A stretch of DNA of 64,000 nucleotides, taken from positions 128,001-192,000 of the forward strand of contig OZ242186.1 of NCBI GenBank assembly GCA_965205675.1, in the 5' to 3' direction. This stretch comes from Nitrosopumilus sp. GTDB lineage: Archaea; Thermoproteota; Nitrososphaeria; Nitrososphaerales; Nitrosopumilaceae. A model generated the notes under the pieces. That model was not told where the DNA came from. It worked only from the letters and a program-made list of their open reading frames with translations, and made no database searches. A program made the translations under genes and the position numbers. Shown piece after piece: positions 9,734-45,764 of this stretch (its first letter is position 1; each line of letters begins with the position of its first letter).

Positions 9734-9965
9734 TTTTTGTATGAAATAAATGATTAAGGTCTTTTTTGAGAAAAGCCTTCGTTCTATCTATTTATGTTAA
9801 CTTAATTTTGTTTGAATAAAAGATATACGTAGGAATTCTCAGTGAGTTCTAAATACTATTTTAGAATAATTTTACTAGTCCTCACCACGATACAAATCGT
9901 TTCTGGTCTTAGACTACTCATGTTTTTGACCGTAAGATTATAAACAGTTACTTGATCTTGCGATC

Positions 9966-10349: not shown

Positions 10350-10354
10350 ATATA

Positions 10355-11899: not shown

Positions 11900-11900
11900 A

Positions 11901-30759: not shown

Positions 30760-31470
30760 TTGACTAGAACAAAGATTATACCAATTTTTCCATTAGACTT
30801 GGTTTTATTTCCAAGACAAGAACTCCCACTTCGAATTTTTGAGCCTCGTTACAAACAACTAGTTGATGATTGCATGATTGGAGATGGTCAATTTGGTGTG
30901 TGTTTGATTGATGAAACTAACTCCGTTAATGGTTGGAACTCTCCGAAATTAGTGGGCACTATTGCCAAAATTTCAAAATGTGAGGATGTGGAACTAGATG
31001 GATTACAATTACAAATTGAAACTCTTGGAAGAAACTCATTTAATATAAAACGCATTATTCCCCCATCAATCACTCAACCTGAAAACTATGATCCTCTTTC
31101 AGTTGAGGGACATCAAGAAATTTCTGAAATACATGAAAAAATTGGAACTGAAGAAAAAATGTACATTCAAGCTGAAGTAGAAATGATTCCTGAAATTGAT
31201 GAAAATATTTCACTTGAGAAATGGCAAACTCTAGTTGATTTATGGAAGAAGAAAATTATCAAACAGGCTTTACCTCAAATTATAGATTCACATTCGTTGG
31301 ATCATGTTTTGGAACAATATTATCTAAATACTGATACACCAACAATTGATTATATTTACTCTTTATCTGCAATTGGTGCCAAGAATCCAAATGAACTACA
31401 ATCAATTCTAGAGGCAACAACTATGGATGAATTAATTAAACAAGTTGAAAAATTGTTAAAGGTAGAATAA
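30760..31470 (+). CDS. LON peptidase substrate-binding (LON N) domain protein
   Basis: IPIFPL.LVLFP...PLRIFEPRYKQLV. Confidence 0.88.
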   Translation: MTRTKIIPIFPLDLVLFPRQELPLRIFEPRYKQLVDDCMIGDGQFGVCLIDETNSVNGWNSPKLVGTIAKISKCEDVELDGLQLQIETLGRNSFNIKRIIPPSITQPENYDPLSVEGHQEISEIHEKIGTEEKMYIQAEVEMIPEIDENISLEKWQTLVDLWKKKIIKQALPQIIDSHSLDHVLEQYYLNTDTPTIDYIYSLSAIGAKNPNELQSILEATTMDELIKQVEKLLKVE

Positions 31471-32837
31471 TGAAAATTAAAAGATCATTTACTCAATTTG
31501 GAATTCTTACAATAATGATATGTCTGTTATTTCCTGTAAGTAGTATTTATGGACATGGATTTGGTATTGATAGAATTTCATCTGTAAATGTGCAAGGAAA
31601 ACAATTATCTATTTCAGTAGAAATGCCAATGTATTTTGAAAATCAACAAGATCAAATTACAATTACTGCAACTGAAGATGATACACAAGAAAATGCAAAA
31701 AATGTAACTTTTCTTATTGGTTTGTTTTACAAAGATGAAATGATTTTTAGAAATTATTTCTTTACCGAAAATGGTATTTTACCAATTATTGTTACGCCAA
31801 CTGAAGATACTAAAATTATCATTCATGGTGAACAAGACTCTTTGCTTGGAGCCTGGCATGGAACTGAATCAAATCCTATAGAAATTACAGGACCACTGTT
31901 TAATTCAGGTGGATTGTATAATTTTGAGATTGAAATAAGAACTATTGATGAACCTACTAACATTATTGAAAATTCTGGCGTGTACAATGCCGATTTGAGC
32001 CTGATTGAGACTGTATCATTCATTGAACAAGATGTTGAAAATCATGATGTCGAATTTCGTTCAAAATCCTATTTTGACACAATTTCTAATTTTGAATATA
32101 ATCCTGAATCAAAAGAAATCACATTTGAGATGCCTTTTGATTGGAATGAAAAGCAAATGTCTCACGTATCTGTTGTTCACATAGAAACTCATTTCCCAAA
32201 AGATTTTGTAGAATTTTTATCTCCTAGCTATTCTGCATATGTTAATAATATTGAATTATTCAAATCTTCAGTATCTGTTGATGATTACACTGAAGATGAT
32301 GAAAGAATAGTTCATCTAGTTTTGTTACAAGATCATTTAAGATTCATGAAAAATGAAATGAAAAAATCTGGCGACACATTACCTGATAATATGCAATTTA
32401 GATTATCTACAAGTGAAATTACCTCATTTCCTTTAGAAGCATATACAAAAAGTGAAGATTTCAAAGTAAATCTTTCGTGGGATCCAATGACTGTAGAGCC
32501 TGACATTGATATTAATTTTATTTTTACAATTAGAGATGGTAGAACTAATGATCCTCTAAGAAGCTCTGATTATACATTTGTGATAATTCAAAATGGTAAA
32601 GAAATTCATCGAACAACCGATATTGCTCAAATAGGTGGAGAATTTGAAAAATTTAAGTTTGGAGAAGATCAAACAGGTCCTACTATAATCAAATTTGAAA
32701 ATATTCGTAACACTGGACAAGAAACTGAATTTGCTCTAGTTGTTGTACCTGAATTTGGAAATATTGTAATACTCGTATTAGTAATTTCTATTATGAGTAT
32801 AATTTTTATAACAAGAAAGAATTCATTGATTATCTAA
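31470..32837 (+). CDS. Secreted PEFG-CTERM protein, mature N-terminus HGFG
   Basis: Signal peptide ending SIYG; C-terminal VVPEFG + TM + RK. Confidence 0.85.
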   Translation: MKIKRSFTQFGILTIMICLLFPVSSIYGHGFGIDRISSVNVQGKQLSISVEMPMYFENQQDQITITATEDDTQENAKNVTFLIGLFYKDEMIFRNYFFTENGILPIIVTPTEDTKIIIHGEQDSLLGAWHGTESNPIEITGPLFNSGGLYNFEIEIRTIDEPTNIIENSGVYNADLSLIETVSFIEQDVENHDVEFRSKSYFDTISNFEYNPESKEITFEMPFDWNEKQMSHVSVVHIETHFPKDFVEFLSPSYSAYVNNIELFKSSVSVDDYTEDDERIVHLVLLQDHLRFMKNEMKKSGDTLPDNMQFRLSTSEITSFPLEAYTKSEDFKVNLSWDPMTVEPDIDINFIFTIRDGRTNDPLRSSDYTFVIIQNGKEIHRTTDIAQIGGEFEKFKFGEDQTGPTIIKFENIRNTGQETEFALVVVPEFGNIVILVLVISIMSIIFITRKNSLII

Positions 32838-33217
32838 AGCGCTACCAACTTTACAGTATCCATGTTTTTATTTGTTTGAAAATCTTTCGTTATTGTAGAT
32901 ACTTTTTCTGCATCTCCATCAATTAGAAAGAGTTCCATGCATTTTTCTTTCTCAATTTTACTATGAAGATGAGTTGTAATTAGATCTTCAAAATTATGTG
33001 TAATGCCTGAAACAATATGATCAAATTGATCATTATGTACAACCAAAAGAATTGCATGAATATTTCCTGCCAAATTTGCTTTTTGTTTTTCTTCAGAAAC
33101 AAATGATCTAATCCCAGCTCTGATAGCTTCCGATCTTCCTGAGAATCCTATAGATGTTTGAAGCTTGTCTAGTTCTGAGAGAATCTCATCATTTAATGAG
33201 ATTGAGACTATTGGCAT
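32834..33217 (-). CDS. NikR-family (RHH + ACT) metalloregulator
   Basis: IVSISL..LD......GFSGRSEAIR ribbon-helix-helix; THLH..C metal region; divergent from the metal ABC operon. Confidence 0.88.
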   Translation of the reverse strand: MPIVSISLNDEILSELDKLQTSIGFSGRSEAIRAGIRSFVSEEKQKANLAGNIHAILLVVHNDQFDHIVSGITHNFEDLITTHLHSKIEKEKCMELFLIDGDAEKVSTITKDFQTNKNMDTVKLVAL

Positions 33218-33259
33218 ATGCCTAATGTTATTAATTATCTTATAAGTTTAGCAATGAAT

Positions 33260-33290
33260 ATTATTAAGATTTTATAAATTTATTAATAAT
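33260..33290. promoter_or_regulatory. Candidate operator ATTATTAA-N15-TTAATAAT bracketing the TTTATAAA box of the ABC operon
   Basis: 8-bp inverted repeat at 33260-33267 and 33283-33290; AT-rich context lowers significance. Confidence 0.5.
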
Positions 33291-33307
33291 TTGGATTGAA
33301 TTGCTTC

Positions 33308-34351
33308 ATGAATATTCAGATAAAGATGGCAATTATCGCAATTATGGTCGTTATTCCATTAGCCTCAATTGCTGTGTATAGTATCAATCCAAGTCAACAA
33401 TTTATCAATATTGATGATAATTCTAAACTTCAAATCATTTCATCATTTAATCCACTACACGAATTTTCTCAAATTATAGGACAAGAAAAAATTGATGCTA
33501 TATTATTAGTTCCTATTGGAGTTGAACCACATGATTGGGAACCAACAATCAAAGATGTACAAAGAATGCAAAAATCTAATTTAATAGTTATCAATGGAAT
33601 AGGTTTTGAAAATTGGGTTGATAATTTAATTGAAAATAACTATCAAGGAATCATAGTTGACACAAGTAATGGGATTAAACTAAATAAATTCAAAGAACAA
33701 CATGATGAAGAACAACATGATGAAGAACAACATGATGAAGAACAACATGATGAAGAACAACATGATGAAGAACAACATGATGAAGAACAACATGATGAAG
33801 AACAACATGATGAAGAACAACATGATGAAGAACATGAACATATTGAAGGCGATCCACATATTTGGTTAAATCCTATATATGCAAAAATACAAGTTCAAAA
33901 CATTGCAAATGCTTTTTCAAACTCTGATCCTAAAAATAGTGAATTTTATAATACAAATGCAGAAAAATATAATAAAAAATTAGATTTACTTGATTCAAAA
34001 ATACGAAATGAATTATCAAACTGCAATAATGATTTTATTGTTTTTCATGATGCATTTTCATATTTTGCTGATGAATATGAGCTTAATCAACATACTATAA
34101 TCCCAACAACTAATTCTCATGGAGAAGTAACTGCAAAAACTCTTGAAAAAGTTATTTTAACGGCTAAAAAATTAAACATTAAAGTAATTTTCAGTGAAGA
34201 AAATATTTCTTCAAAATCATCAGAAATTATTGCAAATGAAATTGGTGGCAAATTTCTAATTTTATCCCCTCTGGAAGTTGTTTCTGATGGAACCTATATT
34301 TCTAAAATGACTAAAAATCTTGAAAATCTAAAGGAAGCATTATGTCAATAG
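33308..34351 (+). CDS. znuA: Zn/Mn ABC transporter substrate-binding protein (ZnuA/AdcA-like)
   Basis: EPHDWEP, DPHIWL, FHDAFSYF; His/acidic repeat loop; start uncertain (33296-33325). Confidence 0.9.
   Translation: MNIQIKMAIIAIMVVIPLASIAVYSINPSQQFINIDDNSKLQIISSFNPLHEFSQIIGQEKIDAILLVPIGVEPHDWEPTIKDVQRMQKSNLIVINGIGFENWVDNLIENNYQGIIVDTSNGIKLNKFKEQHDEEQHDEEQHDEEQHDEEQHDEEQHDEEQHDEEQHDEEQHDEEHEHIEGDPHIWLNPIYAKIQVQNIANAFSNSDPKNSEFYNTNAEKYNKKLDLLDSKIRNELSNCNNDFIVFHDAFSYFADEYELNQHTIIPTTNSHGEVTAKTLEKVILTAKKLNIKVIFSEENISSKSSEIIANEIGGKFLILSPLEVVSDGTYISKMTKNLENLKEALCQ
33695..33829 (+). repeat. 9 x 15-bp perfect tandem repeat GAACAACATGATGAA encoding (EQHDE)9
   Basis: Read directly from the sequence. 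Confidence 0.97.
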
Positions 34352-35061
34352 TTGAAATCAACAATCTCACTGTTCTGTATCCTGATGTTAAAGCTCTAGA
34401 TGATGTTAGCTTCACAGTCAATTCCGGGGATTTTCTAGGCATAATTGGTCCTAATGGTGCTGGAAAATCTACTCTTTTTGATGCTATGTTGGGTCTCAAT
34501 ACAAAATATGATGGAACTATCAAATTTTTTGATGAAGATATTAAAAAATCAAAAAATTATCTTATAGAACTTGGTTATGTACCGCAGAAGCCGATTTTTG
34601 AAAAAAATTTCCCAGTAACTGTAAGTGATGTAGTAAGAATGGGATTAAGAAATGAATCTAACGAAAATAAAATAGATGAAATTTTACAACAATTATGGAT
34701 TCATGAGCTTCGTAACAGAAGAATAGGTGAATTATCTGGAGGACAACAACAACGAGTATTCATTGCAAAAGCTTTGGTCAATAATCCAAAAATATTGATT
34801 TTAGATGAACCTGTTACAGGAATTGATCAACAAAGTATTGAATTGTTCTATAGTATTCTTCGAGAATTAAATTCTAAACAAAAAATCACTATTATTTGGT
34901 CTTCTCATGATTTGGATGCAGTTAATCAGCTAGCAAACCATGTAGCATGTTTAAACAGGACCTTATTCTTTCATGGAAAATCCGAAAAATTCTTTTCTGA
35001 TGATGAACTAATCAAACAATATTCTGAAGCTTCAATGCAGGAACATATGCATCATCATTAA
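34342..35061 (+). CDS. znuC: Zn/Mn ABC transporter ATP-binding protein
   Basis: GPNGAGKST, GYVPQ, LSGGQQQRV, LDEP, SHDL; C-terminal HMHHH. Confidence 0.92.
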   Translation: MSIVEINNLTVLYPDVKALDDVSFTVNSGDFLGIIGPNGAGKSTLFDAMLGLNTKYDGTIKFFDEDIKKSKNYLIELGYVPQKPIFEKNFPVTVSDVVRMGLRNESNENKIDEILQQLWIHELRNRRIGELSGGQQQRVFIAKALVNNPKILILDEPVTGIDQQSIELFYSILRELNSKQKITIIWSSHDLDAVNQLANHVACLNRTLFFHGKSEKFFSDDELIKQYSEASMQEHMHHH

Positions 35062-35063
35062 TC

Positions 35064-35882
35064 ATGTCTTTTGAAATTCTAACCTTTGGTTTTATGCACA
35101 GAGCACTAATTTCTGGAATTGCAATTGCAATTCTCTGTTCAGTGGTTGGCTTGTTCTTGGTGTTAAGACGTTATTCTTTATTTGGAGATGCAATTGCACA
35201 TTCATCTTTTGGTGGAATTGCTCTGGGATTACTTGCTGGCATTTATCCATTATGGGCTGCATATGGAGTTTCAATAGCTAGTGCATTAATAATTACTAAA
35301 GTTAAAGATCGATATAATATTTCAGGAGATGCATCCATTGCCGTTTTATTATCTTCAGGTATAGCAGTTGGACTTGTAATCATTGGGTTATCTGGAGGCT
35401 TTACAATTGACATCTTTAGTTTTCTCTTTGGTAGTATTCTACTTGTTAGTGTAGATGACACTGTACTAATTTTGGCATTAACTGGTGTAATCCTAATTAT
35501 AATTTTATTACTTTATCGTCAAATTCTTTATTCTACATTTAATGAAGAACAAGCCAAAGTCAGTGGAATTCCTGTTGAGAAAATAAACTATTTGATAGTG
35601 TTTATGGCAGGAATTACAGTTGTTACATCTATTCAACTTGTAGGTGTGTTATTAATTTCAGCTCTATTTGTAATTCCTAACGTTACAGCAATAATGTATG
35701 GTAAAGGCTTCAAACAAACTGCAATAATTTCAATGAGTTTATCTATTTTTTCAGTTATCGCAGGAATTCTAATCTCTTACATATTTGATATAACGCCTGC
35801 CGGAACCATCGTTCTCGTATCAATTGGATTACTTGCAATAACAATGGGGATAAAATCTTTTGGGTTATTATCTAAGAATTAA
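35064..35882 (+). CDS. znuB: Zn/Mn ABC transporter permease
   Basis: GDAIAHSSFGG, FLFGSIL, FNEEQAKVSG, VGVLLISAL. Confidence 0.92.
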   Translation: MSFEILTFGFMHRALISGIAIAILCSVVGLFLVLRRYSLFGDAIAHSSFGGIALGLLAGIYPLWAAYGVSIASALIITKVKDRYNISGDASIAVLLSSGIAVGLVIIGLSGGFTIDIFSFLFGSILLVSVDDTVLILALTGVILIIILLLYRQILYSTFNEEQAKVSGIPVEKINYLIVFMAGITVVTSIQLVGVLLISALFVIPNVTAIMYGKGFKQTAIISMSLSIFSVIAGILISYIFDITPAGTIVLVSIGLLAITMGIKSFGLLSKN

Positions 35883-38652
35883 CCATGGAATTTAATCTTC
35901 TTTTATCTTGTATACTTTTTACATAAAATAATGATGTCGCAATAATTCCTAATGCAATTATTGGTGATACAAGTTCAGCATATTTGATTTCATCACTATT
36001 TGATTCCTGAATTTGTGTAATACTTACTGGAATCTCTGTAATCTCTACCATTCCAATTTTATTTGATTGTTGTTCCACAAACCACACGTTATCATTTCCA
36101 TCTGATGTCATAAATTGAACAAAAGATGTTTCAGTTGGAATTGGAATTTCTAACAAATCCTTGTTGTCTGGATCATAAACTCCTAAACTGTCAATTGTGT
36201 GCTGTGCAAACCACACATTTCCATATTTATCAAATGTCATACCAAATGGTAATGCTTCATCATCAGGCACGGATATTTTTTCAAATGTCTCTAAAACTGG
36301 ATTAAATCTAGTGATTGCCAAGCCTGTATGTTCTGCAATCCATAGATTTCCGTCATCATCAAAAATTAGAGCCTCCGGAGACTGTAATTCTGTTTCAGTT
36401 AAAATTTGAGTCAGATGATTATCTTTTGGATCTATGAATCCTATTTTACCTACTGCTGCTGCAGAATACCACACCATTCCGTTTTCATCAACTGCTAAAG
36501 AAAGTGGAAGTGATCCTTTGTCTGGTAAAATCACTTCTTCAAATTCATCTTGTTCTGGAAGATATTTTAGAATTTTATCCTTGTTAACAATGGTGATCCA
36601 AATATTATTCTTAAAATCTGCTGTGATAACTAATGGAATATTTTTTGAAATTACTGGATCTAATTTTGGTAAAGTTTTGAGTGTAATTTCTTTTGTTTGA
36701 ACATCGATAAATCCAATTTGATTTCTTGGAGTATCTGTGAACCAAATCTTTCCAGTAGTATCCATAGTTAGAAACATTGTAGTGAGCCCATCAAATGTGT
36801 GTGCAGAAAATTCTTTTGTTTCAAGTGAAAATTGCCATAATCTTGGAGCAGAAGGATCACTTATCCAGATAGAACCATTTCCATCATACAATGGGAACCA
36901 TGGTTTTGCATCTTCAGGTAATTCATATTCAATTATTTGTGTTTGAATATCTACTAATCTTGGTTTTACAAGCAAATTCAAAATCTTAGATTCATTTGCA
37001 TTTTCTGTTCTTTGAGCTTCAATTTCTATTAACCATTCATCTGAAAATCCAAATGTTAATTCACCTTGAAATTCATTAGGTATACTTTCTTCTTGTTTTA
37101 CAAGTTCAATAGGAACTTCAATAGGTGAAATATTTTTTGATGGGTTTGAAATTTTCACTTTCATTTGATCTAAATCGTAAAGCTGATTCCCTTCAAAATC
37201 ACTTACTTTAACTAAAATTCTGTTTGCCCCACTAGAAAATGGTGAAATATAAATATCAAATTTTACATTTTCTGTAAATTCAATCGTTTTAAATCCATAT
37301 GTTACCTCTTGTGCATCTACTTTTTGGATTTCTCCTGTAGGTAATGTTCCGTTTGTTAGTAATGCCACTACGCCCAGAAGAATAATTCCCAACGCCGCAT
37401 CAACTCTCAGTGATCTTTTTAATTTTTTATAAACCATAATTTTACCTGATGAAAAATTCTTTTCAGCATTTTTTTGTATTTTAAATTGGAATATGCCTCC
37501 TAATACCACCATGACTATTGCAATCATTATTTTGAGAATAATTAATTGGCCAAATACGGACTCTTTGATTAATACTACGTCAGTTTCCAAAAACCACATT
37601 AACGTTGGTCCAGTAATTATTACAATCCCTATTGAAATGATAAATGCAATAGAAAATCTTGGAATTATCACAAGACTCATCTTTTCTCTATTTACATCTT
37701 TTAATTGTGAAAATGTTGGAAGTAATGTAAAAGCAAAATAGATTATTCCTCCTATCCAAATTGCAGCAACTAAATTGTGTATATAGTCTAGTACTAATGC
37801 TCCCAATTCTTCAGTAGCTGCACCATGTCCAATCAGACTAGAAGTTGAAATTAATACTAATGATGCTATTAGCATTGGAATTTGATTTTTCTTTGATAGT
37901 GTATTTTCTTTATCCATTGCAAACCAAATTCCAAGTAAAATTATTGTGATAATCATTCTAGCAAGCCAAACTGTTCCAAAATATGTTTGAATTACCTCTA
38001 ATGGTGAAGTTTCTAGTCTAACTGTCTGAACAGCAATCATCAAAATATCTGAAATGAATACAAGTATCAATCCTATGCCTGTAATTGACATGAATTTTCC
38101 ATGATGGAAAATTTCTATTTTATTTAATTCTTCTTTGATTAGTAGCTTATTTTGTGTTCCCCAAATTAACAATGATGCAATTACCACACCTAAAATAATA
38201 GTTTGACCTACGATTCCAGGGAATTTTGCTCCGGCATAATCAAAAAATATTATTTCTGATTCAATTACTGGTTGATTGACATCTTCAATTATTACATCTC
38301 CAACTCCAAACAAAAATGCACTTGGGACTAGATGTCCATCAAATTCAGAGAGAACTTTAACTGATGTAGTATAAACTCCATCATCTAATGGTAAGGTAGT
38401 AACAATTAGAGATAACTCTCCTTCATGATAATTGGTATCTTTGTTATCAATTTGATTTCCATTACTATCAAAAACTTTGATTTCACTAAAGTTGATATCT
38501 ACTGGTTCTGAAAAATACACAATAACTTCTGTTGTACCTACTGGAGCATTAGATGCTAAATTTGGAATAGTTTTTTCTGTAAATGGATGTGCCGCTGCAA
38601 ACGGTATTGAAATGAATGATAAAACTGTTAAAAATAGTAGAATTTTTCTCAT
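35872..38652 (-). CDS. CopC-CopD fusion with an Ig-like domain and a Vgb-like beta-propeller, C-terminally anchored
   Basis: AAA-HPF mature His1 and DGH (CopC site); GHGAA and YIHNLVAAIWIGG (CopD); repeated P..(L/I)..D..GNxW blades. Confidence 0.88.
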   Translation of the reverse strand: MRKILLFLTVLSFISIPFAAAHPFTEKTIPNLASNAPVGTTEVIVYFSEPVDINFSEIKVFDSNGNQIDNKDTNYHEGELSLIVTTLPLDDGVYTTSVKVLSEFDGHLVPSAFLFGVGDVIIEDVNQPVIESEIIFFDYAGAKFPGIVGQTIILGVVIASLLIWGTQNKLLIKEELNKIEIFHHGKFMSITGIGLILVFISDILMIAVQTVRLETSPLEVIQTYFGTVWLARMIITIILLGIWFAMDKENTLSKKNQIPMLIASLVLISTSSLIGHGAATEELGALVLDYIHNLVAAIWIGGIIYFAFTLLPTFSQLKDVNREKMSLVIIPRFSIAFIISIGIVIITGPTLMWFLETDVVLIKESVFGQLIILKIMIAIVMVVLGGIFQFKIQKNAEKNFSSGKIMVYKKLKRSLRVDAALGIILLGVVALLTNGTLPTGEIQKVDAQEVTYGFKTIEFTENVKFDIYISPFSSGANRILVKVSDFEGNQLYDLDQMKVKISNPSKNISPIEVPIELVKQEESIPNEFQGELTFGFSDEWLIEIEAQRTENANESKILNLLVKPRLVDIQTQIIEYELPEDAKPWFPLYDGNGSIWISDPSAPRLWQFSLETKEFSAHTFDGLTTMFLTMDTTGKIWFTDTPRNQIGFIDVQTKEITLKTLPKLDPVISKNIPLVITADFKNNIWITIVNKDKILKYLPEQDEFEEVILPDKGSLPLSLAVDENGMVWYSAAAVGKIGFIDPKDNHLTQILTETELQSPEALIFDDDGNLWIAEHTGLAITRFNPVLETFEKISVPDDEALPFGMTFDKYGNVWFAQHTIDSLGVYDPDNKDLLEIPIPTETSFVQFMTSDGNDNVWFVEQQSNKIGMVEITEIPVSITQIQESNSDEIKYAELVSPIIALGIIATSLFYVKSIQDKRRLNSMVNS

Positions 38653-38747
38653 TTGTTGTTAAGATCATTTATGACAATTTAAACAGTTTACATTTTTCTA
38701 AATTTGTACCAATTTACATAAAGATAATAACTGATGATTTTCCAACA

Positions 38748-39383
38748 ATGGTCGTGAAGATAGCATTTTTTGGCTTTATTGTTTTATTATTTTCAATTGG
38801 AATGACTGTTCCTTCATTAGGGCATACTACAGTACATGTTGAACAATATGCAATTGAAGCAGGATGGGGAATTGAACCTCCTGTAGTAGGAATTCGAAAT
38901 GATCTTGTCTTTAAAATAACTAAAGCCGGAGAAACAGAAGGCACATACACAGGTGTTACAAACGTTTTCAAAAGCACCGATGCGACTATAATGTTTGGAG
39001 GTGCAACTAAAAAAATTAGTATTAATTCTGATCCAAGACCTGGATATTATTTCTCACCTATTATTCCGACTAAAACTGGAAGTTACATGGTTGAATTAAA
39101 AGGAGAAATTCGTGATGTTCCAGTTGATATCAAAATACCTATTGAAGATGTTGAACCCACAGCAGTATTAGATTTTCCTCCAACAACAGGAGGCGGTGAT
39201 ACTGGTATTGCTGCACTAAAACAAGCAATTGCATCATTACAACAAGATGTTTCTAAAATGAACTCAGGTGAAACTAAAGTTAATTCTAATAGCGGTCAAT
39301 CTTATGACTTTGCAATACTTGGATTATCTATTGCAGCGGCAGCGATTATTTTAGCAATTATATCATTAGTAAAAAGAAAATAG
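38748..39383 (+). CDS. Secreted, membrane-anchored protein with predicted mature N-terminal His (HTTVHVE)
   Basis: Start moved to ATG 38748; signal peptide, Ig-like core, coiled coil, C-terminal TM + KRK. Confidence 0.75.
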   Translation: MVVKIAFFGFIVLLFSIGMTVPSLGHTTVHVEQYAIEAGWGIEPPVVGIRNDLVFKITKAGETEGTYTGVTNVFKSTDATIMFGGATKKISINSDPRPGYYFSPIIPTKTGSYMVELKGEIRDVPVDIKIPIEDVEPTAVLDFPPTTGGGDTGIAALKQAIASLQQDVSKMNSGETKVNSNSGQSYDFAILGLSIAAAAIILAIISLVKRK

Positions 39384-39397
39384 AAAAAGAGGTATTC

Positions 39398-40282
39398 CTA
39401 AAATCTCGGAACGACTCTAGATTTTGAAGTTACTGCTACGATGCTTATAATTGCAACAGCTAGTATCATCATTACGATTGTACCAAATTCTGGAACAACG
39501 TTTGAGAATACGACTTCTTCACCAATTGGTCCTGTTTTAGGATCATCAACACCATAACCTTGGAAAGTAATAGTGATGTCTACTGGATCAGAAGAACTTA
39601 ATGCTGCTGTAGTATGTACGCCTTTACCATCGTGATGATGTGCGCCTTCATCGTTCAAAACTTCTTCACCGTTTTGTGTAACCATCATATCATGGTTAAC
39701 ATGTTCTGCATCGTCAAATTCAATGGAAATTTCCATCATTTCACCTGCAATTGGTGTTGAAGTCCAGATTGAAACCATTGTGCCATCAGATAACATTCCG
39801 GTTGCAGATGCATCACCTTCGTGCATCATTTCACCGTCATCGTCACCATGATCGTCACCGTCATTGTCTTTTACAGCTTCTACTTCTTGTACTATGATCA
39901 TTCCTGCCATCCATGGATGAACTATACAGAAGTATGGTTGTTCACCAACTTGTGTTGGAGACCATTCAAATGAACTTCCGGCCATTGCTAGACTGGAATC
40001 AAATACTGTGCCAACTGAATCAGCATCTTCTGCTGCACCTGATGTGAATGTATGTGCTACATTATCAGTGTTTGAGAAAATTACTTTTCCACCAACATCA
40101 ACAGTTGCAGTACTTGGAATGAAACATCCTTCTGGAGTTTCTTCACAGCCTGGTGTGCCAGAACCTGCTGTAGGTTCAACTGTGACTTCTGCATGATCTG
40201 CAAAAGCAGCTGGAGTCATTGTGACCATACCTGCTGCAATAGCAAATAGTACGAAGAGTGAGCTAAGTGCTTTAGTCTTCAT
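39398..40282 (-). CDS. Blue (type 1) copper cupredoxin with a His-rich second domain and PEFG-CTERM
   Basis: AHTFTSG ... YFCIVHPWM ligands (H, C, H, M); EHVNHDMM and HHHDG; VVPEFG-TM. Confidence 0.92.
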   Translation of the reverse strand: MKTKALSSLFVLFAIAAGMVTMTPAAFADHAEVTVEPTAGSGTPGCEETPEGCFIPSTATVDVGGKVIFSNTDNVAHTFTSGAAEDADSVGTVFDSSLAMAGSSFEWSPTQVGEQPYFCIVHPWMAGMIIVQEVEAVKDNDGDDHGDDDGEMMHEGDASATGMLSDGTMVSIWTSTPIAGEMMEISIEFDDAEHVNHDMMVTQNGEEVLNDEGAHHHDGKGVHTTAALSSSDPVDITITFQGYGVDDPKTGPIGEEVVFSNVVPEFGTIVMMILAVAIISIVAVTSKSRVVPRF

Positions 40283-40339
40283 TAGACAAATTACTCGAAT
40301 GGATACATAAAAACCTCACTGGAATTTTTAGAGATAAAA

Positions 40340-41164
40340 CTAGTTTTTTCTAAATTGATACAGTTTTAGAATTCCAAATACAGGAATCCCTACATACATT
40401 CCAATGTTTAGTAGAACTATGGATATGCCATATACCAACATATCTTGCTCTGAGTTAATTTCAACATAATCTAACAAAGACAATGACGATAACATTGGAG
40501 TTAATCCCATCTTAACAACTTCTTTGAAAACTGGATTTTTTCTTTCAAAGTCTGCTATGGTTGGAGAAAATGAATAATAGAGTTGATTAAAAGATGTCAT
40601 AAATGCTGTTCCTGAGTTTGTTTCAAGAATTGTGTTATCTCTAAGTTCTCTTAATTGTTGAACTTGTGGTGCCATTTCAGAATCATATGCTGCAGTTGCA
40701 ATAAGACAACCTCCATTCTCATCTGTTGGAGGTTCTTCTTTATCCGATAATGATGGTTGAGCAAGTGCTTCTCCTACAATAACATCAAATGATACTATTT
40801 CAGTTGGAATTGGTTGAAACAAAATTCCTTCAACTTCAAAGTCTATAGTATACACTCCTTCTCCAAGATTAAATTCAATTGGAATTTTTACAGTTCCAAC
40901 TGATGTATGAGTTAGTGGAATTGGTCCAAATACTTTTTCATCATTCTTAGAAACGGAAATTGTATAATCAATATGTTCTTGAATTTTTTGTGTTTGTGGG
41001 TTTAGAAAATCAATATTTATTTTTGTTTGAACATTTGGTTCTATAGTATCATATGTTAATTTTACATCCAGGGTACCTTTTTCTGTAGATAGAGTCTGTG
41101 ATTCTGCAAATGCAGATGGTATAATCAATAATGGAATTAATAATGCTGCAAGTAGAAATTTCAT
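40340..41164 (-). CDS. Secreted protein with CFI-box-CTERM sorting domain
   Basis: GGCLIATAAYDSEMAPQVQQLRELRD...YYSFSP; QEHIDY..HT motif in the N-terminal domain. Confidence 0.85.
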   Translation of the reverse strand: MKFLLAALLIPLLIIPSAFAESQTLSTEKGTLDVKLTYDTIEPNVQTKINIDFLNPQTQKIQEHIDYTISVSKNDEKVFGPIPLTHTSVGTVKIPIEFNLGEGVYTIDFEVEGILFQPIPTEIVSFDVIVGEALAQPSLSDKEEPPTDENGGCLIATAAYDSEMAPQVQQLRELRDNTILETNSGTAFMTSFNQLYYSFSPTIADFERKNPVFKEVVKMGLTPMLSSLSLLDYVEINSEQDMLVYGISIVLLNIGMYVGIPVFGILKLYQFRKN

Positions 41165-41276
41165 GTTTTAATTTTAAAAATCGGAAATAAAAATTATACC
41201 TCGTTTTCTCACAGAAAACTATTACGCATAGAAATACTGTGCCAGCTTTAAATATGGAATTAACATAATTTTAGTA

Positions 41277-42986
41277 TTGTACCACAAGATTGCATTATTA
41301 GTTATAATTATCGGAATTTTTACAATTCCTGTTATTCTTCCAAATGCATTTGCTCATGGTCTTGGTGGAGATCAAGCAGAACCTATCAGTTTTGGTGACA
41401 TGGAAGTAACAGTTCGTACTGATTTGAATCCTTCTGATATTACCATTGGGAATATTGATGATGTAAATATGAAAATTAGATTTTTTGATACTCTTACTGA
41501 TATCAGTTTAGAAAAAGTAACTTACAGAGTAGAAGTTTGGAAAAGTGGGGATTTACTTGCGCGAAATCTCTTTTATGATTTAGATGGACGATTAGATGTA
41601 GAACTTCGTCCAACATTTGATTGTGACGAATCTGATCTTTGGAAATGTACTATTTATGGTGGTTCTGAACATGTTAGTGCTCCAGGTGCATTATTTGTTC
41701 AAGGCGCTGCATGTACTGATGACAATTTAGATATTTGTGCCAGACCCACAATCACGGGTCCAATTTTTGACAAAGGTGGATTATACAATATCAAAATAGA
41801 CATTGAAGCTGCAACAAGTCCTAAAATAGTTCTTGCTGAGCGATTAACATATGATACCTTTGTTAGTGTTGCACAGGAACAAGACTTTTTCATCCAAACC
41901 GCAAATGCAGAAATTCCAATAGTTGTTAAAACATATTATGACGATGTTGAGAATTTCCAATTTAATACTTCTGATAATTCAATAAGTTTTGACATGGCTT
42001 TTGATTGGAGTCCTGATTATGTTAATTTAGTACAAGTAGTTCATGAAGAAGTCAGAGTTCCTAAATCTTTTGTTCCATATGCTGAAGGAAAACAATTCAA
42101 AGGTTATGTTAACGGTGTAGAAATTGGTCAAAGAGCTTTGCTTAATGATCCATATTCTTATGATGACACAAATATAGTTCATTTCTTAGTATCAAAAAGT
42201 GACTTAGAAAAAATCAATAAAACTCTGGGACCAGATAACTATGATAATAAAAATATGAATCTAAAGTTAGTACCATTAGAAGAAACATCAAAAAGTTCTA
42301 CTGAATTTTATCTAGTAGACACTACAAACTATGAAAAAACTCCAACTACTGTAAATATTTCTTGGGATGGAAAATATGGTGCCAATCAAGAAGTTCCATT
42401 TGAGTTTACATTCTTTAATGAAGATAGAGAATTAATCAAAGATGTTAAATATGCTTATGTTGTTTTAGATGAATTTGATCAAGAAATAGCAAGAAATGGT
42501 GATGGTGTTGATTCTGTAAATCCTGGAATTGTGTCTATTGAAGGATTAGATATTCAAGAAATCTACATTCCTTCTGCAGGTCAAATTCGTATTGACATGC
42601 TAGTTTATGGAACTGGGTTAGACTATGATCCAACTTATTCTGGAATTGGTTCTGCAATTATTGAAATTGGTCCAAGTTCTACAACTGTAACACCTTTAGT
42701 TTCTGAAGAAATTCTAATCCCTAGTTGGATTAAAAATAACGCAGAATGGTGGGTAGCAGGACAAATTGATGATGATTCATTCATTCAAGGAATTCAATAT
42801 TTGATTAAAGAAGATGTTCTAAAGATTCCTCCAACTGCTCAAGGTACTAGTTCTGATTCAGATGATATTCCCGGTTGGATTAAAAATAACGCAGAATGGT
42901 GGGTAGCAGGACAAATTGATGATGATTCATTCATTCAAGGAATCCAGTATCTGATTAAAGAAGGAATCATGAGAGTACAATCATAG
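41277..42986 (+). CDS. Secreted HGLG-start protein with two C-terminal IPxWIKNNAxWW repeats
   Basis: AFA-HGLGGD; paralogous core with the 31470 and 43228 proteins. Confidence 0.85.
42724..42963 (+). repeat. Intragenic direct repeat, about 90 bp with a 150-bp period
   Basis: 42724-42793 is identical to 42874-42943, followed by a few synonymous differences. Confidence 0.92.
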
Positions 42987-43019
42987 GTTTTTAAATAAAT
43001 TCTGTAGAATGATAGTGTA

Positions 43020-43226
43020 ATGAAAGATATCAACGATATCATGCCAAAAGTTCCTAACATGAGATGGGGAGCTTTGATGAATAAAGCACCTACTAGTGAT
43101 AAGGTTGAAGAAATGAATAAAATTTTTCCCAACAATGGTAAATGGCATACAGTTTTTGAAGAACAAGATCAAATTACAATCGATGGAAAAGAAATTAGAA
43201 AGAAAAATCCCAACAAGTGGACCTAG
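43020..43226 (+). CDS. Small hypothetical protein (68 aa)
   Basis: MKDINDIMPKVPNMRWGAL...NGKWHTVFEE; TTTAAATA about 25 bp upstream; abuts the next gene. Confidence 0.7.
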   Translation: MKDINDIMPKVPNMRWGALMNKAPTSDKVEEMNKIFPNNGKWHTVFEEQDQITIDGKEIRKKNPNKWT

Positions 43227-43227
43227 A

Positions 43228-44787
43228 TTGAAAAATTTCTTATTATTTGGGTTTTTGATATTATTATCTGTATTTGTCATACAACTTGATAGTGCATATG
43301 GTCATGGTGTTGGAAGTGAAACTTTTCCTCCTGTTGATCTTAACGGCAGATTTGTAACACTAGAAGTTTCATCATCACAAAGTGATCCTAAAACAAGTGA
43401 TGATCAACAAATATCAATTTCGTTAATTGATTTTGATTCAAAAATTACATTACGAGATGTTACATTTTCAATCAAATCAGAACGTGGAGAACAATTTCTT
43501 TTTGAAGATGAATTTACAGCAGATAATGGATTCATAGTTTTTAATTTTGTATCTGAAGAAATTGATTCCATAATAGTAGAGGAGGAAAATGGCGGAGGCT
43601 TTTTTGGTTCTTTATTGGGACTTGAAAGTAGAATGGTTCATGTAAAAGGTCCTAAATTAAGTGAAGGTGGATTATACAAGTTAGATGTTATTGTATTAAC
43701 AGCAGATGGATATACCAAAAAATTAGATGTACCTCTAATTTTTAATGCTGGAATCTCTATTGCTCAAACATCTAGTCATGATTTTGTTGATCCAAATTTT
43801 GGCGAGCAAAACATAGGTGTAATAACTTACTATGATGCAATTTCTAATTTCAATTATGATCATAATTCAAAAGAAATTAGTTTTTTCATGCCTTTTGATT
43901 GGACACAATCAAACATTAACCAAACTTCTGTAGTTCATGAAGAATTAGTTATTCCAAAAAATTTTGGCGATCTACTAGTATCAGGATTTACAATGCATGT
44001 TAATGGAGTGAAATTATCTGAAAATATTGTAAATATTGATGATTTTTTTACTGATGACAGAATCGTTCATTTTATTATCTATCAAAAAGAACTACAAAAT
44101 ATTTTTGATAATACTACAATTCAAAATGGCATGAATTTTACAATTAAACCAGATCGTGATTATACCCACCTAAGTTCAGTAACTAATAATGGTCAATTTA
44201 GAATTCTCGTATCATGGGAACCCGAAATTTTAAAGTCTAATTCAAATGCAAAAATATTCTTTGATGTAGCTGATATTTTCTTAAAAGATAGACCAGTTGC
44301 AACAAATTATGATTTTTCAATAACACAAAATAACAGAATTATTTTTGAACAAAGTGGAATTAGTTCTGATTCAAAAGATGTATCTAACATTGCAGAATTT
44401 ATGATACCTGATGATATTTCAGGTATTGTAAACTTGAATTTTAATAACTTAGATCATAATACTCTTGCACAGTCTACAATTCCCATTGTAATTAATAGAA
44501 TAATTACAACAAGTGATGAAATTTCATTACCTGAATGGATTAGAAGTAATGCATTATGGTGGTCACAAGACCAAATTGATGATATAACATTTATTCAAGG
44601 AATTGAATATTTAATTCAAAATAATATAATTTCAATTCCTCAAACTCAACAAACAATTTTAGAATCTCAAGAAATCCCACCTTGGATTAGAAGTAATGCA
44701 GAATGGTGGGCAAATAAACAAATTGATGACGAAACATTTGTTCAAGGTCTGGAATATCTAATTAAGAATGGAATTATTCATGTTTGA
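43228..44787 (+). CDS. Secreted HGVG-start protein with two C-terminal PxWIRSNAxWW repeats
   Basis: Start set at TTG 43228; SAYG-HGVGSE; paralog of 31470 and 41277. Confidence 0.85.
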   Translation: MKNFLLFGFLILLSVFVIQLDSAYGHGVGSETFPPVDLNGRFVTLEVSSSQSDPKTSDDQQISISLIDFDSKITLRDVTFSIKSERGEQFLFEDEFTADNGFIVFNFVSEEIDSIIVEEENGGGFFGSLLGLESRMVHVKGPKLSEGGLYKLDVIVLTADGYTKKLDVPLIFNAGISIAQTSSHDFVDPNFGEQNIGVITYYDAISNFNYDHNSKEISFFMPFDWTQSNINQTSVVHEELVIPKNFGDLLVSGFTMHVNGVKLSENIVNIDDFFTDDRIVHFIIYQKELQNIFDNTTIQNGMNFTIKPDRDYTHLSSVTNNGQFRILVSWEPEILKSNSNAKIFFDVADIFLKDRPVATNYDFSITQNNRIIFEQSGISSDSKDVSNIAEFMIPDDISGIVNLNFNNLDHNTLAQSTIPIVINRIITTSDEISLPEWIRSNALWWSQDQIDDITFIQGIEYLIQNNIISIPQTQQTILESQEIPPWIRSNAEWWANKQIDDETFVQGLEYLIKNGIIHV

Positions 44788-44841: not shown

Positions 44842-45243
44842 TTGATCACTTTGCTTAGACCTGAACGTATAATTGAAAAAAAATCAACCTTGTTTTCTAT
44901 TGTTGTAACTGGCGTTGTTGCAATTTTAGCCTTGCCGATAATTATTCCTCATTTGCTACATGGTTATCATCTAGTCCACATCTTCTTGCATGTTGGAGGG
45001 ATTACTCTTGCTGTTTTTATTTCCGTATTGGCAGGAATTGCATATTACAGATTAAGAACAAAACGACTTTTACTAAGTGCAGTAGCTTTTACAAATTTTA
45101 TTGCAGCTGAATTTGTTTTACTTGTAGATGCTACATGGCCATTAATTTATGATGTTGGCGATGTGTCTCTTGGAGAAGTAGGACATTTGTTGACTTTTAT
45201 TACTCTGGGATTATTGGCATTGGGAGTGTTTAGAAATGACTGA
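44842..45243 (+). CDS. Four-TM His-rich membrane protein
   Basis: PHLLHGYHLVHIFLH loop and EVGH in the last TM; overlaps the following wHTH gene. Confidence 0.75.
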   Translation: MITLLRPERIIEKKSTLFSIVVTGVVAILALPIIIPHLLHGYHLVHIFLHVGGITLAVFISVLAGIAYYRLRTKRLLLSAVAFTNFIAAEFVLLVDATWPLIYDVGDVSLGEVGHLLTFITLGLLALGVFRND

Positions 45244-45736: not shown

Positions 45737-45764
45737 AATTTTAGTCTTAAAATTTTCTTTATCC

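Follow-up and report, generated by a model that had tools for sequence, protein, structure and literature searches.

Three paralogous surface proteins encoded beside a CopC–CopD copper importer in Nitrosopumilus belong to an uncharacterised, probably metal-binding family

In a 64,000-nucleotide stretch of contig OZ242186.1 from Nitrosopumilus sp. (the window), three surface proteins are encoded in one island with two metal importers. A sequence-only reading has put them forward as a candidate new His-brace copper-binding family. Do they form a family, and is copper what they bind? The three genes are:

31470..32837, + strand: paralogue A, 455 aa, open reading frame with translation
41277..42986, + strand: paralogue B, 569 aa, open reading frame with translation
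43135..44787, + strand: paralogue C, start uncertain (43135, 43183 or 43228)

The reading frames are real, and pairwise alignment with A gives 30% identity for B and 28% for C. The start at 43228 first assigned to C is one of several, as the frame is open from 43135, with further in-frame starts at 43183 and 43228. All of the shared motifs initially listed fall among the 60-odd invariant columns of the A/B/C alignment, together with the three invariant histidines (H29, H237, and H282 of the A precursor, i.e., mature residues 1, 209, and 254). In A, whose start codon overlaps the stop of an upstream Lon-N-domain gene by one base, a signal peptide (residues 1–28) is followed by the mature His1 at nt 31554, a three-domain core (nt 31554–32741), and a PEFG-CTERM anchor from about nt 32742 (TIGR04296, E 1.1e-9, 37.8 bits, cut-off 25). 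The anchors indeed differ, since B bears two WIKNNAEWW repeats (residues 484 and 534) and C two WIRSNAxWW repeats; B also has an insertion with four Cys in domain 1.

No Pfam model, NCBIfam-core match, or PDB sequence match has been found for A, B, and C. Comparison at the sequence level confirms them as members of a real, undescribed protein family, which comprises 687 clusters at 50% identity. Members occur in each of the order's four families with AmoA, with several paralogues per genome, and in the sample of the order they are present in 66/66 AmoA-positive genomes vs. 2/85 AmoA-negative ones. The family is restricted to ammonia-oxidising archaea, and A, B, and C are anciently diverged paralogues, with B in a tree clade apart from A and C. 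In databases, this one family is split into three bins (arCOG08795, arCOG08812, and arCOG08793), which may also include stand-alone domain-3 proteins; domain-3-like proteins of this kind in other loci match the family HMM at 1e-13 to 1e-17. Sequence comparison places NVIE_014240 of N. viennensis, binned in arCOG08812, in the family (62% identity over 97%, HMM E 1.8e-113), while Nmar_1684, Nmar_1647, and Nmar_1648 have been assigned to A, C, and B, respectively, by gene order and product name (Dataset S4, PMC12448741).

The first point of the copper proposal is the mature N-terminus. The −3/−1 rule, on which all the cleavage sites given here are based, puts His1 first in A (SIYG/HGFG), B (AFA/HGLG, His27 at nt 41355), and C (SAYG/HGVG, His at nt 43303), exposing the HGxG start as expected. 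In the family alignment, 114 rows have at least 12 residues before aligned position 1; in these, residue −3 is A/V/S/T/I/L throughout (114/114) and residue −1 is G/A/S in 113/114, so that 113 of the 114 rows fit the rule. The upstream leader has a median of 27 residues, with an uncharged stretch of at least nine in 110/114. Both features indicate that aligned position 1 is the predicted mature N-terminus. Of 121 rows, 91 (75%) have His at residue 1, 21 have Asp, three Gln, two Asn, and one Glu, and Gly2 occurs in 110. Asp prevails in one clade of 23 rows (19 Asp, two His, and two Asn) and appears in a second small clade, and the tree suggests His–Asp swaps in both directions, including reversions to His. 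To our knowledge, the known His-brace families retain His1, and a strict His brace does not tolerate the exchange of His for Asp; the variability of residue 1 across the family therefore weakens the strict His-brace reading.

The best-conserved residues belong to domain 2, namely His209-x-Glu211, His254, Asp243, and Asn231 (found in 115, 118, 116, 115, and 115 of the 121 rows, respectively); Asp175 is kept in 117, and about ten polar or aromatic residues are kept at 90% or more across the family. Judged from the alignment, the polar set is of a metal-ligand kind. Residue 1 appears to be coupled to it: where it is neither His nor Asp, four of six rows lack His209 or His254 as well, usually with Arg or Lys in its place, vs. 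just five of the 112 rows that begin with His or Asp. All 21 Asp1 rows retain His209, Glu211, Asn231, Asp243, and His254. Chemically, a set of His/Asp, two His, and Glu is no less typical of Zn, Fe, Mn, or Ni than it is of Cu.

The AlphaFold (AF2) model of A confidently predicts three beta-sandwich domains in a fixed arrangement (pLDDT 95.8, pTM 0.88). The first ten residues average only 83–84, and the counts fit values of 50–70 for residues 1 and 2, so the N-terminal His has no confident docking in the model. Domain 3 matches the CD109 MG domain (Z 11.7, rmsd 1.7, 92 aligned), C3 (Z 11.5), CrdA (Z 10.7), and PmoD (Z 9.8). For domain 1, the matches are CrdA as the best (Z 8.0, rmsd 3.1, 102 aligned), HftA (Z 7.0), FtrA-P19 (Z 6.7), PmoD (Z 6.6), and Tp34 (Z 6.5), along with macroglobulin domains (Z 7.4–7.9). 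Such matches are generic, and the fold comparison has given none specific to a His-brace family. When the family was compared by hhalign with the CopC domain of the island itself, the probability was 0.8%, and the sole aligned segment paired the GGLY motif with the DGxY strand of CopC; GGLY looks like a structural tyrosine corner rather than a ligand.

The surroundings of A, B, and C in the window are as follows:

32834..35882: NikR-like regulator (− strand) and ZnuA/ZnuC/ZnuB-type metal ABC importer (+ strand); Pfam NikR_C 1.8e-11, ZnuA 7.8e-72
35872..38652, − strand: fusion of CopC, CopD, and a beta-propeller, 926 aa; Pfam CopC 6.6e-8, CopD 1.8e-11, Vgb_lyase 1.8e-42
38748..39383, + strand: small exported protein with a C-terminal membrane anchor
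39398..40282, − strand: cupredoxin-like protein with a PEFG-CTERM anchor (8e-13)
40340..41164, − strand: CFI-box-CTERM protein; NF041770 E 6.2e-22
44842..45736, + strand: 133-aa membrane protein and 166-aa double winged-helix ArsR/MarR-type regulator (Pfam)

The cleavage sites predicted for the neighbours agree with the N-termini that the sequence-only reading had pointed out: FAAA/HPF in the CopC–CopD fusion, SLG/HTTVH in the small exported protein, and AFA/DH in the cupredoxin-like protein. The CopC domain has the canonical His1...Asp-x-His, with His1, Asp84, and His86 invariant in 56/56 aligned sequences. The HTTVH protein belongs to no Pfam family and adjoins CopC–CopD in 32/39 close loci, as well as in other genera. 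The Cupredoxin_1 and Copper-bind matches of its neighbour fall below the Pfam cut-offs, and the N-terminal domain of the CFI-box-CTERM protein resembles domain 3 of the A/B/C family. By a crude signal-peptide heuristic, His occupies position +1 in 12 of 481 leader-like ORFs genome-wide (2.5%), and four of the 12 lie within this 13-kb block of the 2.01-Mb genome; A, which the heuristic cuts elsewhere, is the fifth His-first protein of the block, giving 5 of about 13 in the genome. The clustering of His-first proteins in the block is more than chance.

The link with CopC–CopD extends to other genomes. A CopC–CopD gene lies no more than 8 kb from the A orthologue in 34/39 close loci with full flanks, and within the fetched 20 kb in 8/16 loci in other genera of the family (ten genomes). 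In genus g166, a member and CopC share one contig, 6–14 kb apart, in 4/4 genomes present in both lists, and a member stands beside CopC–CopD in the three other AmoA-carrying families (L102 and L112, L108, and L109). Each of the order's four families with AmoA thus has a member within a few kb of CopC–CopD, which supports the genomic link, although a gene order shared inside one monophyletic group may reflect descent and not function. The membrane protein/winged-helix pair likewise accompanies family members and CopC–CopD in other lineages; by protein-family label it corresponds to NVIE_014290/NVIE_014280 (Dataset S2/S4, PMC12448741).

The original copper proposal is partly supported. An undescribed family, an N-terminal His predicted to be free in all three paralogues, the CopC–CopD link in four families, and the joint loss of residue 1 and His209/His254 speak for it, while the His brace itself is weakened by the Asp swaps at residue 1, the generic fold matches, the negligible likeness to CopC, and the lack of NVIE_014240 induction under Cu limitation. 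Our tentative preference is that A, B, and C are constitutive surface proteins binding a divalent metal. Each would be exported by a Sec-type leader, whose predicted cut frees residue 1, and fixed to the cell surface through an anchor of one of three interchangeable types. The displayed part would be a rigid core of three beta-sandwich domains, which we infer to hold one divalent transition-metal ion; in the putative site, neighbouring domain 2 strands would supply His209-x-Glu211 and His254, with residue 1 (His, or Asp in one clade) as a cap from the N-terminus. The metal would most likely be Cu(II), and the proteins may act as a constitutive extracytoplasmic copper-binding partner (a buffer, store, or hand-over station) of the adjacent CopC–CopD importer, in the role that YcnI has for YcnJ in Bacillus subtilis.

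The word "constitutive" comes from expression data. In the one organism covered, N. viennensis, copper limitation, which the sequence-only reading had named as a check, does not induce NVIE_014240 (log2FC 0.11, adjusted p 0.57), whereas NVIE_014250 to NVIE_014310 next to it, including the CopC/D genes, are up 2.2–2.8 log2 units (NVIE_014290 and NVIE_014280 by 2.7 and 2.5). Two further arCOG08812 genes change by log2 0.65 and 0.08, and biofilm growth likewise leaves NVIE_014240 unchanged (log2 −0.03) but raises the expression of its neighbours. Such constitutive expression also suits structural surface proteins, i.e., Ig-like spacers or an S-layer-associated scaffold of the pseudo-periplasm with no part in metal trafficking, where the His/Glu/Asp/Asn cluster would merely lock the interface of domains 1 and 2, perhaps around a structural Ca or Zn ion. 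Three Ig/macroglobulin-like sandwiches, S-layer proteins among the fold matches (7ptp_A, Z 8.6; 4aq1_C, Z 6.0; 8qox_B, Z 5.9), several paralogues per genome, and the same core on three different surface anchors (PEFG-CTERM, WIKNNAxWW pairs, and, in Nitrososphaera, CFI-box-CTERM) all favour this role. We nevertheless hold it to be unlikely: His is an unusual ligand for structural Ca sites, a spacer needs neither strict conservation of residues 1–2 right after the cleavage site nor the coupled loss of residue 1 and His209/His254, and the CopC–CopD link survives rearrangements in four archaeal families.

If a metal is bound, it might also be zinc (or nickel), scavenged at the surface for the ZnuABC-type importer under the NikR-like regulator. 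The NikR-like/Znu genes, whose ZnuA has a long His/Asp/Glu-rich insert, sit between A and CopC–CopD, so that A adjoins them directly, here and in 31–32 of 39 close loci; moreover, His/Asp, His, His, and Glu with a free His–Asp exchange at one position, the pattern seen in the family, is typical of Zn sites. However, the insertion is lineage-specific: Znu/NikR genes are absent beside members in L009 and in the three other AmoA-carrying families, where CopC–CopD is present (L102, L108, L109, and L112), and in the island B and C are grouped with the copper genes, beside the cupredoxin and CopC–CopD partner genes. A zinc or nickel binder is thus rather improbable. Least probable of all are extracellular metalloenzymes specific to ammonia-oxidising archaea, with the domain 2 cluster and the N-terminus as a catalytic copper centre acting on small nitrogen/oxygen species or a surface glycan: the near-exact tracking of AmoA, more conserved residues than a simple binding site needs, paralogues beside AmoC (L105) or haem-copper oxidase genes (L108), NFRAN_2799 next to the multicopper oxidase NFRAN_2798 by gene order (Dataset S3, PMC12448741), and steady, fairly high expression (NVIE_014240 at TPM 412–518, Nmar_1648 ranking 169th) would fit, but the fold comparison shows no enzyme similarity beyond generic sandwiches, the shared distribution with AmoA amounts to one event, given that the ammonia oxidisers form a single clade, N. 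maritimus expresses its A orthologue at a low level (TPM 12–20), and Asp can replace His1.

Returning to the proposed copper binding by A, B, and C, three groups of known proteins can be compared with them. The bis-His-brace proteins (LPMOs, CopC, and PmoB/PmoF-type) are likewise secreted beta-sandwiches in which the mature chain starts with His (predicted for A/B/C) and a further conserved His and an acidic residue are available, but the two share no sequence or profile likeness, and His1 is far from universal in the family. The MG/Ig-like domains and the copper sandwiches CrdA (9ll2), PmoD (6cpd), P19/FtrA (7r4z), HftA (8t7m), and Tp34 (3pjl) belong to the same fold class; the copper sandwiches tie with generic MG domains, identity is 5–20%, and only the fold is in common, as neither domain 1 nor domain 3 conserves residues equivalent to the metal ligands of these five.

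The precedent for the proposed role is YcnI (DUF1775), which is described as binding Cu(II) via its N-terminal His plus a Glu (PMC8424229) and as exchanging Cu(II) with the CopC domain of YcnJ (PMC12362106). A, B, and C differ from YcnI in having no DUF1775 match, three domains instead of one, candidate second ligands in another domain, and a His1 replaceable by Asp; in addition, Cu starvation raises expression of the ycn operon, a response that NVIE_014240 lacks. By position, the better counterpart of YcnI is the small HTTVH protein, which has the same place beside CopC–CopD as YcnI has beside YcnJ. Still, like YcnI, A, B, and C are beta-sandwich proteins tethered to the membrane outside the cytoplasm, with an N-terminal His that is free (by prediction in A/B/C), and their genes adjoin that of a CopC–CopD fusion importer; YcnJ (CopC-CopD-YtkA) and the island fusion have the same domain order, and a YtkA-like domain, as in YcnJ, has been detected in relatives (L108 and L109).

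The three paralogous surface proteins A, B, and C belong to a family whose members display three sandwich domains at the cell surface; its defining conserved features, as read from the alignments, are a predicted free N-terminal residue and a His-x-Glu...His cluster in the second domain. Our tentative reading, for which we would claim somewhat less than an even chance, is that the N-terminus closes one metal site, which would work beside the CopC-CopD fusion, whichever the metal. The three open frames proposed in the sequence-only reading exist, and their paralogy is borne out by identities to A of 30% (B) and 28% (C); the motifs it had listed are all invariant among the three, including the His residues at positions 29, 237, and 282 of the A precursor. 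The window has a G+C content of about 31%, and its nearest relatives in protein and locus searches are Nitrosopumilus genomes.

The three family genes of the window
31470-32837, forward strand: A, ORF of 455 aa
41277-42986, forward strand: B, ORF of 569 aa
43135-44787, forward strand: C, ORF open from 43135 (other candidate starts 43183 and 43228) to 44787

Besides these three intact genes, the window's genome (G000) contains one decayed copy and one short fragment of the family, both outside the window. The former (G000:C1:250328-251350, reverse strand; locus L004) has 7 in-frame stops with VVHQE still readable, and the latter (G000:C1:87004-87210, forward strand; L005) is a piece of domain 3. 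As had been claimed, the anchors differ: A ends in PEFG-CTERM (TIGR04296, residues 425-454, scoring 37.8 bits where the cut-off is 25), a profile with no match in B or C, which carry instead a C-terminal pair of repeats of about 45 residues containing WI(K/R)xNAxWW. Since this repeat is present in 8 open frames of the genome, usually twice per frame, it is a general surface module of this organism, and it constitutes a surface-anchoring domain for which there is no existing model. In Nitrososphaera, judging from the product names given by the sources, CFI-box-CTERM is a third anchor on the same core. An exported 432-aa protein at 45666-46964 (forward strand) of the window also bears two WIKTNANWW-type repeats, its N-terminal part being unrelated and unclassified, with a weak FxLYD match (E 0.013).

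The anchor-free core served as query for an exhaustive profile search, which yielded 687 clusters (50% identity) with E capped at 0.001 and 198 with E capped at 1e-30. The alignment used below has 121 rows, namely the three cores and 118 representatives of at least 400 residues among the 150 representatives listed. Leaders were assessed in the 114 listed rows with at least 12 residues ahead of aligned position 1, with the -3/-1 rule as the sole basis: the residue at -3 belongs to the set A/V/S/T/I/L in 114/114 and that at -1 to the set G/A/S in 113/114, the median leader length is 27 residues, and an uncharged run of at least 9 residues occurs in 110. Position 1 is thus the predicted mature first residue throughout the family, and the proposed cleavage before HGxG in A, B, and C stands as a prediction, residues allowed by the rule occupying both positions in 113 of the 114 family rows.

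When a crude leader-peptide heuristic was applied to the whole genome, His was found at +1 in 12 of 481 candidates (2.5%), and four of the 12 lie inside this block: the CopC-CopD fusion, the HTTVH protein (an exported protein named after its predicted mature start), B, and C. A is the fifth His-first protein of the block, the heuristic having placed its cut elsewhere. The enrichment of the island in His-first exported proteins is real. Further predicted proteins of this kind, with a slash marking the cut, start elsewhere in the same genome at G000:C1:82717 (forward strand, AYG/HTVDALGEY, similar to the HTTVH protein), 199473 (forward, TSA/HTTLAF), 1634140 (reverse, AYA/HKLISH), and 1818227 (forward, AYA/HSMFNS).

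With residues numbered from the mature N-terminus of A, at least 90% conservation across the 121 listed rows is seen at Gly2, Phe69, Gly74, Gly120, Leu121, Tyr122, Ser149, Tyr173, Asp175, Pro194, Phe195, Trp197, His209, Glu211, Asn231, Asp243, and His254, and Gly120 is invariant. Among these, His209 is kept in 115 of the rows, Glu211 in 118, His254 in 116, Asp243 and Asn231 in 115 each, and Asp175 in 117. The first mature position holds 91 His, 21 Asp, 3 Gln, 2 Asn, and 1 Glu, and 3 rows have a gap there. Consequently, the three His are not equal. Within the trio of paralogues the claim of their invariance is right, and in the family at large the domain-2 pair is near-universal; His1 is replaceable, and with Asp in 21 of 121 rows, a family-wide invariant N-terminal His of the kind found in His-brace proteins is not what the family has.

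A FastTree phylogeny places A, B, and C in three separate, well-supported clades. Most Asp1 proteins group together in a 23-row clade that comprises 19 Asp, 2 His, and 2 Asn rows, a second small Asp pair is nested in the superclade of C, and the Asp label changes at least 4 times on well-supported branches, so that several His/Asp exchanges in both directions are indicated. All 21 Asp1 rows retain His209, Glu211, Asn231, Asp243, and His254. Where residue 1 is Gln, Asn, or Glu, four of six rows also lack His209 or His254, mostly having Arg or Lys instead, as against 5 of 112 rows with His or Asp. Such coupled losses would be expected if residue 1 and the two domain-2 His form one site and a basic side chain stands in for a lost cation; the rows are related, and the pattern is a hint, not a statistic.

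An AlphaFold2 model of the A core, built with the 121-row alignment (396 residues, mean pLDDT 95.8, pTM 0.88), is predicted to be all-beta except for one helix, with sandwich domains at about 1-135, 140-298, and 300-396; a second model of residues 1-298 has a pLDDT of 94.7. Domain 3 resembles macroglobulin-type sandwiches at the fold level only (CD109, Z 11.7, rmsd 1.7 over 92 aligned residues; C3, Z 11.5), and small copper proteins (CrdA, Z 10.7; PmoD, Z 9.8) score below the macroglobulin domains at 11.1-11.7. The best match of domain 1 is CrdA (Z 8.0, rmsd 3.1, 102 aligned), level with macroglobulin domains at 7.4-7.9 and followed by HftA, FtrA-P19, PmoD, and Tp34 (Z 6.5-7.0); domain 2 matches only accessory glycosidase sandwiches with Z of 7.0 or less. 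With both models, Foldseek returned only multi-domain complement/macroglobulin and T-cell-receptor-like (tandem-Ig) matches at TM of about 0.2. LPMO, CopC, YcnI, and peptidylglycine-monooxygenase-type entries are not among the matches in the four structure-search lists, which does not amount to an exclusion. On the evidence of the models, the fold class of the family is known, without a specific structural relative in these searches.

Pfam has no family for A, B, or C at E up to 0.01. With the limit relaxed to E 10, there was only noise for the split domains, for the WIKNNAxWW tail, for the HTTVH protein, and for three small neighbours, His- or Asp-first, in the Nitrososphaera-type locus L112. 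NCBIfam recognised nothing in the three proteins except the anchor of A, neither database has a peptidase family profile for them, and the joint profile of A, B, and C matched no PDB chain at E up to 10. The nearest ESM Atlas clusters are unnamed Nitrososphaerota clusters, one of them auto-named 'Secreted periplasmic Zn-dependent protease family protein'. The Zn-dependent peptidase label attached to some records was rejected, the conserved motif being VVH-x-E and not HExxH, with no peptidase profile.

The mean pLDDT of the first ten residues is 83-84, with counts compatible with residues 1-2 at 50-70 in both models. The N-terminal His is therefore not confidently docked in the predicted structures, and this speaks mildly against a site that is already formed. 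The macroglobulin-like sandwiches would sit well with a purely structural surface role, the joint loss of residue 1 and the domain-2 His less well; we consider such a role unlikely, although it deserves to be kept in mind. A complex prediction for the CopC domain with A domains 1-2 scored 0.00 both times, the mark being 0.32, and carries no weight either way.

In a phylum sample of 301 genomes, the family occurs in 43/43 genomes of the window's own taxonomic family (besides the window's genome) and in 0/257 of other families. In an order sample of 151 genomes, the window's own included, matches are found in four families (23/23, 9/9, 11/11, and 23/23), in 1/15 genomes of a fifth, and in none of the other 69. 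The archaeal AmoA profile PF12942, run against the same 151 genomes, marks the same four families (23/23, 9/9, 11/11, and 22/23) and 0/84 elsewhere. The protein family is present in 66/66 AmoA-positive genomes of the order sample versus 2/85 AmoA-negative ones, the two being G414 (96% complete) and G390 (75% complete). Given the samples and the related groups they contain, the safe claim is limited to the sampled AmoA-carrying lineages: the family is in every one of them and almost nowhere else in the order.

The neighbourhood of A orthologues was compared in the 39 of 80 loci that have full 8-kb flanks, all from Nitrosopumilus, Nitrosarchaeum, or close relatives.

Genes around A orthologues in the close loci
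pyrB: 39/39
Lon-N-domain gene: 38/39
CopC-CopD fusion: 34/39
HTTVH protein: 32/39
ZnuC and ZnuB: 32/39
NikR-like gene: 31/39

In one of these (L009), A abuts CopC-CopD directly because the Znu block is absent. The order pyrB, Lon-N, A is preserved in 38-39 of the 39 close loci, and in the window (30760-31472) the stop codon of the upstream Lon-N-domain gene overlaps the A start codon by one base. A is probably co-transcribed with housekeeping genes.

Beyond these genera, 16 loci of 20 kb around family matches in ten genomes of the same taxonomic family have CopC-CopD within 20 kb in 8 cases and at least one of CopC-CopD, HTTVH, and cupredoxin in 11, with shuffled gene order and protein identities down to 27-36%. 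The CopC-CopD association is also found in the three other AmoA-carrying families. In L102 and L112, the family member is separated from CopC-CopD by small exported proteins, then a double-wHTH regulator, then a small membrane protein; in L109, a pair of members adjoins CopC-CopD; in L108, a member directly follows CopC-CopD, then come a second member and the COX15, plastocyanin, COX1, and COX2 genes. A zinc or nickel role, to which the Znu and NikR-like neighbours of A might point, is rather improbable: these genes are not beside family members in the three other AmoA-carrying families examined, so it is CopC-CopD that keeps company with the family in every AmoA-carrying family examined, the zinc link being specific to one lineage. 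The family has stood beside CopC-CopD since before the sampled AmoA-carrying families diverged.

Several further observations concern these clusters. Other paralogues of the same genomes lie beside AmoC (L105), superoxide dismutase (L103), and pterin carbinolamine dehydratase (L104). At L105:7730-8290 and 9501-10553, the AmoC gene stands beside a two-domain Asp1 paralogue of 350 aa, and L108:9031-14173 is the stretch where paralogues adjoin the COX15, plastocyanin, COX1, and COX2 genes. Stand-alone domain-3-like proteins recur in the clusters (window 40340-41164, reverse strand; L109:8194-8733; L112:16552-16995; HMM E 1e-13 to 1e-17). The window also encodes, at 33296-34351 (forward strand), a ZnuA-type binding protein with about 8 tandem EEQHD-like pentapeptides (HDEEQHDEEQ...), ending in HEHIEGDPH; they make up a long loop rich in His, Asp, and Glu, such as zinc-specific binding proteins have. 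In Nitrososphaera-type clusters, nearly all small exported proteins between the member and CopC-CopD are His-first after the predicted cut (AFA/HNF, ADA/HFF, VYA/HQR, AYA/HAV, and VYA/HPI; L112:6557-7468, 7525-8031, 11491-12234, and both CopC-CopD genes; L108:10625-11155). In Dataset S3 of PMC12448741, NFRAN_2799 (arCOG08812) adjoins the multicopper oxidase NFRAN_2798 by gene order.

Transcript data come from N. viennensis, where a guess from gene order, NVIE_014250, was ruled out as the family member. Sequence search points to the adjoining NVIE_014240 (P0426), with 62% identity over 97% of the L112 protein, a family HMM E of 1.8e-113, and the motifs GAYG/HGLG, GGLY, FDW, LVHME, and VVHF; labelled arCOG08812 in Dataset S2 of PMC12448741, it is a family member by sequence. 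Expression under Cu limitation had been proposed as a check, and in Dataset S1 of Reyes et al. 2020 (PMC7785015) this gene is not induced.

Response of N. viennensis genes to Cu limitation (log2; PMC7785015)
NVIE_014240, family member: 0.11 (adjusted p 0.57)
NVIE_014250, exported protein: +2.64
NVIE_014280, ArsR regulator: +2.47
NVIE_014290, membrane protein: +2.72
NVIE_014300, CopC/D: +2.68
NVIE_1457, exported protein: +2.80
NVIE_014310, CopC/D: +2.20
NVIE_027700, arCOG08812: +0.65
NVIE_028080, arCOG08812: +0.08

The biofilm study PMC12448741 likewise reports NVIE_014240 as flat (log2 -0.03, TPM 412 vs 518, rank about 359) and NVIE_014250 to NVIE_014310 as up. The N. maritimus counterparts below were assigned from gene order and product names.

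Putative N. maritimus counterparts (Dataset S4, PMC12448741)
Nmar_1684, A: PEFG-CTERM, arCOG08795, TPM 12-20
Nmar_1648, B: labelled 'peptidase', arCOG08793, TPM 222-384
Nmar_1647, C: arCOG08812, TPM 18-33

From these data, the family is expressed at steady levels, and the low, steady expression of Nmar_1684 fits the probable co-transcription of A with housekeeping genes. In N. viennensis, the one organism covered, the family is outside the copper-starvation response that governs its immediate neighbours, which cautions against treating all genes of the island as members of a single copper-starvation regulon. Gene order equates the first and third His-first proteins of L112 with NVIE_014250 and NVIE_1457, both strongly induced by Cu limitation in the same dataset, and the small His-first proteins of Nitrososphaera-type clusters may be better copper-starvation candidates than A, B, and C. 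The element TTCTAAATTTGTACCAAT at window 38696-38713 (forward strand) has 3 mismatches to the promoter motif reported for Cu-limitation-induced genes in N. viennensis (PMC7785015). It is situated between the divergent HTTVH and CopC-CopD genes, 35-52 nt ahead of the HTTVH start. Matches to this motif number 8 in the window where 2.5 are expected, a count attained in 0 of 100 shuffles, and the remaining seven are not at obvious copper genes. Literature searches found no paper naming Nmar_1648, Nmar_1647, Nmar_1684, or NVIE_014240, nothing joining 'histidine brace' with ammonia-oxidizing archaea, and nothing on PEFG-CTERM that concerns this family.

The energy metabolism of ammonia-oxidising archaea is copper-based, and to our knowledge, nothing is known of their copper acquisition beyond the CopC/CopD genes. 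The simplest mechanism fitting the observations would be a single metal site over which the N-terminus closes and which functions beside CopC-CopD. It is held tentatively, and its metal left open, because of the His/Asp exchange at residue 1 and the flat transcripts under copper limitation. A bolder reading, which must be called improbable, sees a metal centre of a new extracellular kind that would have arisen a single time, when the ammonia-oxidising archaea originated: an inter-domain site where the free N-terminal residue of domain 1 would close over the His-x-Glu...His platform of domain 2, providing either the missing step of high-affinity Cu(II) capture and hand-over in these copper-dependent nitrifiers or a catalytic copper site in extracytoplasmic nitrogen-oxide chemistry. 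An enzyme specific to ammonia-oxidising archaea would match the AmoA-like distribution, finds little encouragement in the fold matches, and seems the least probable of all. The family is an obvious and cheap target, being multi-copy, in every sampled AmoA-carrying lineage, and beside CopC-CopD throughout the history of the group. Should copper binding prove true, the few known metal sites built on an N-terminal residue would gain a new architecture, and copper uptake in archaea a new component; if not, the family is still a conserved surface module of these organisms.

Compared with known systems, A, B, and C share with His-brace proteins of the LPMO, CopC, and PmoB type a predicted His as mature residue 1. 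They differ from CopC (PF04234) in having no profile match at E up to 0.01, or at E up to 10 with split domains, and an hhalign comparison of the family with the CopC alignment is insignificant (probability 0.8%), its sole paired segment being GGLY with DGVY of CopC; GGLY probably serves the fold as a tyrosine corner. Nor does the mono-histidine-brace protein YcnI (DUF1775) have a profile match in A, B, C, or the HTTVH protein. YcnI binds Cu(II) via its N-terminal His and a Glu (PMC8424229) and exchanges Cu(II) with the CopC domain of YcnJ (PMC12362106). YcnI with YcnJ is the closest worked example for the site proposed here beside CopC-CopD.
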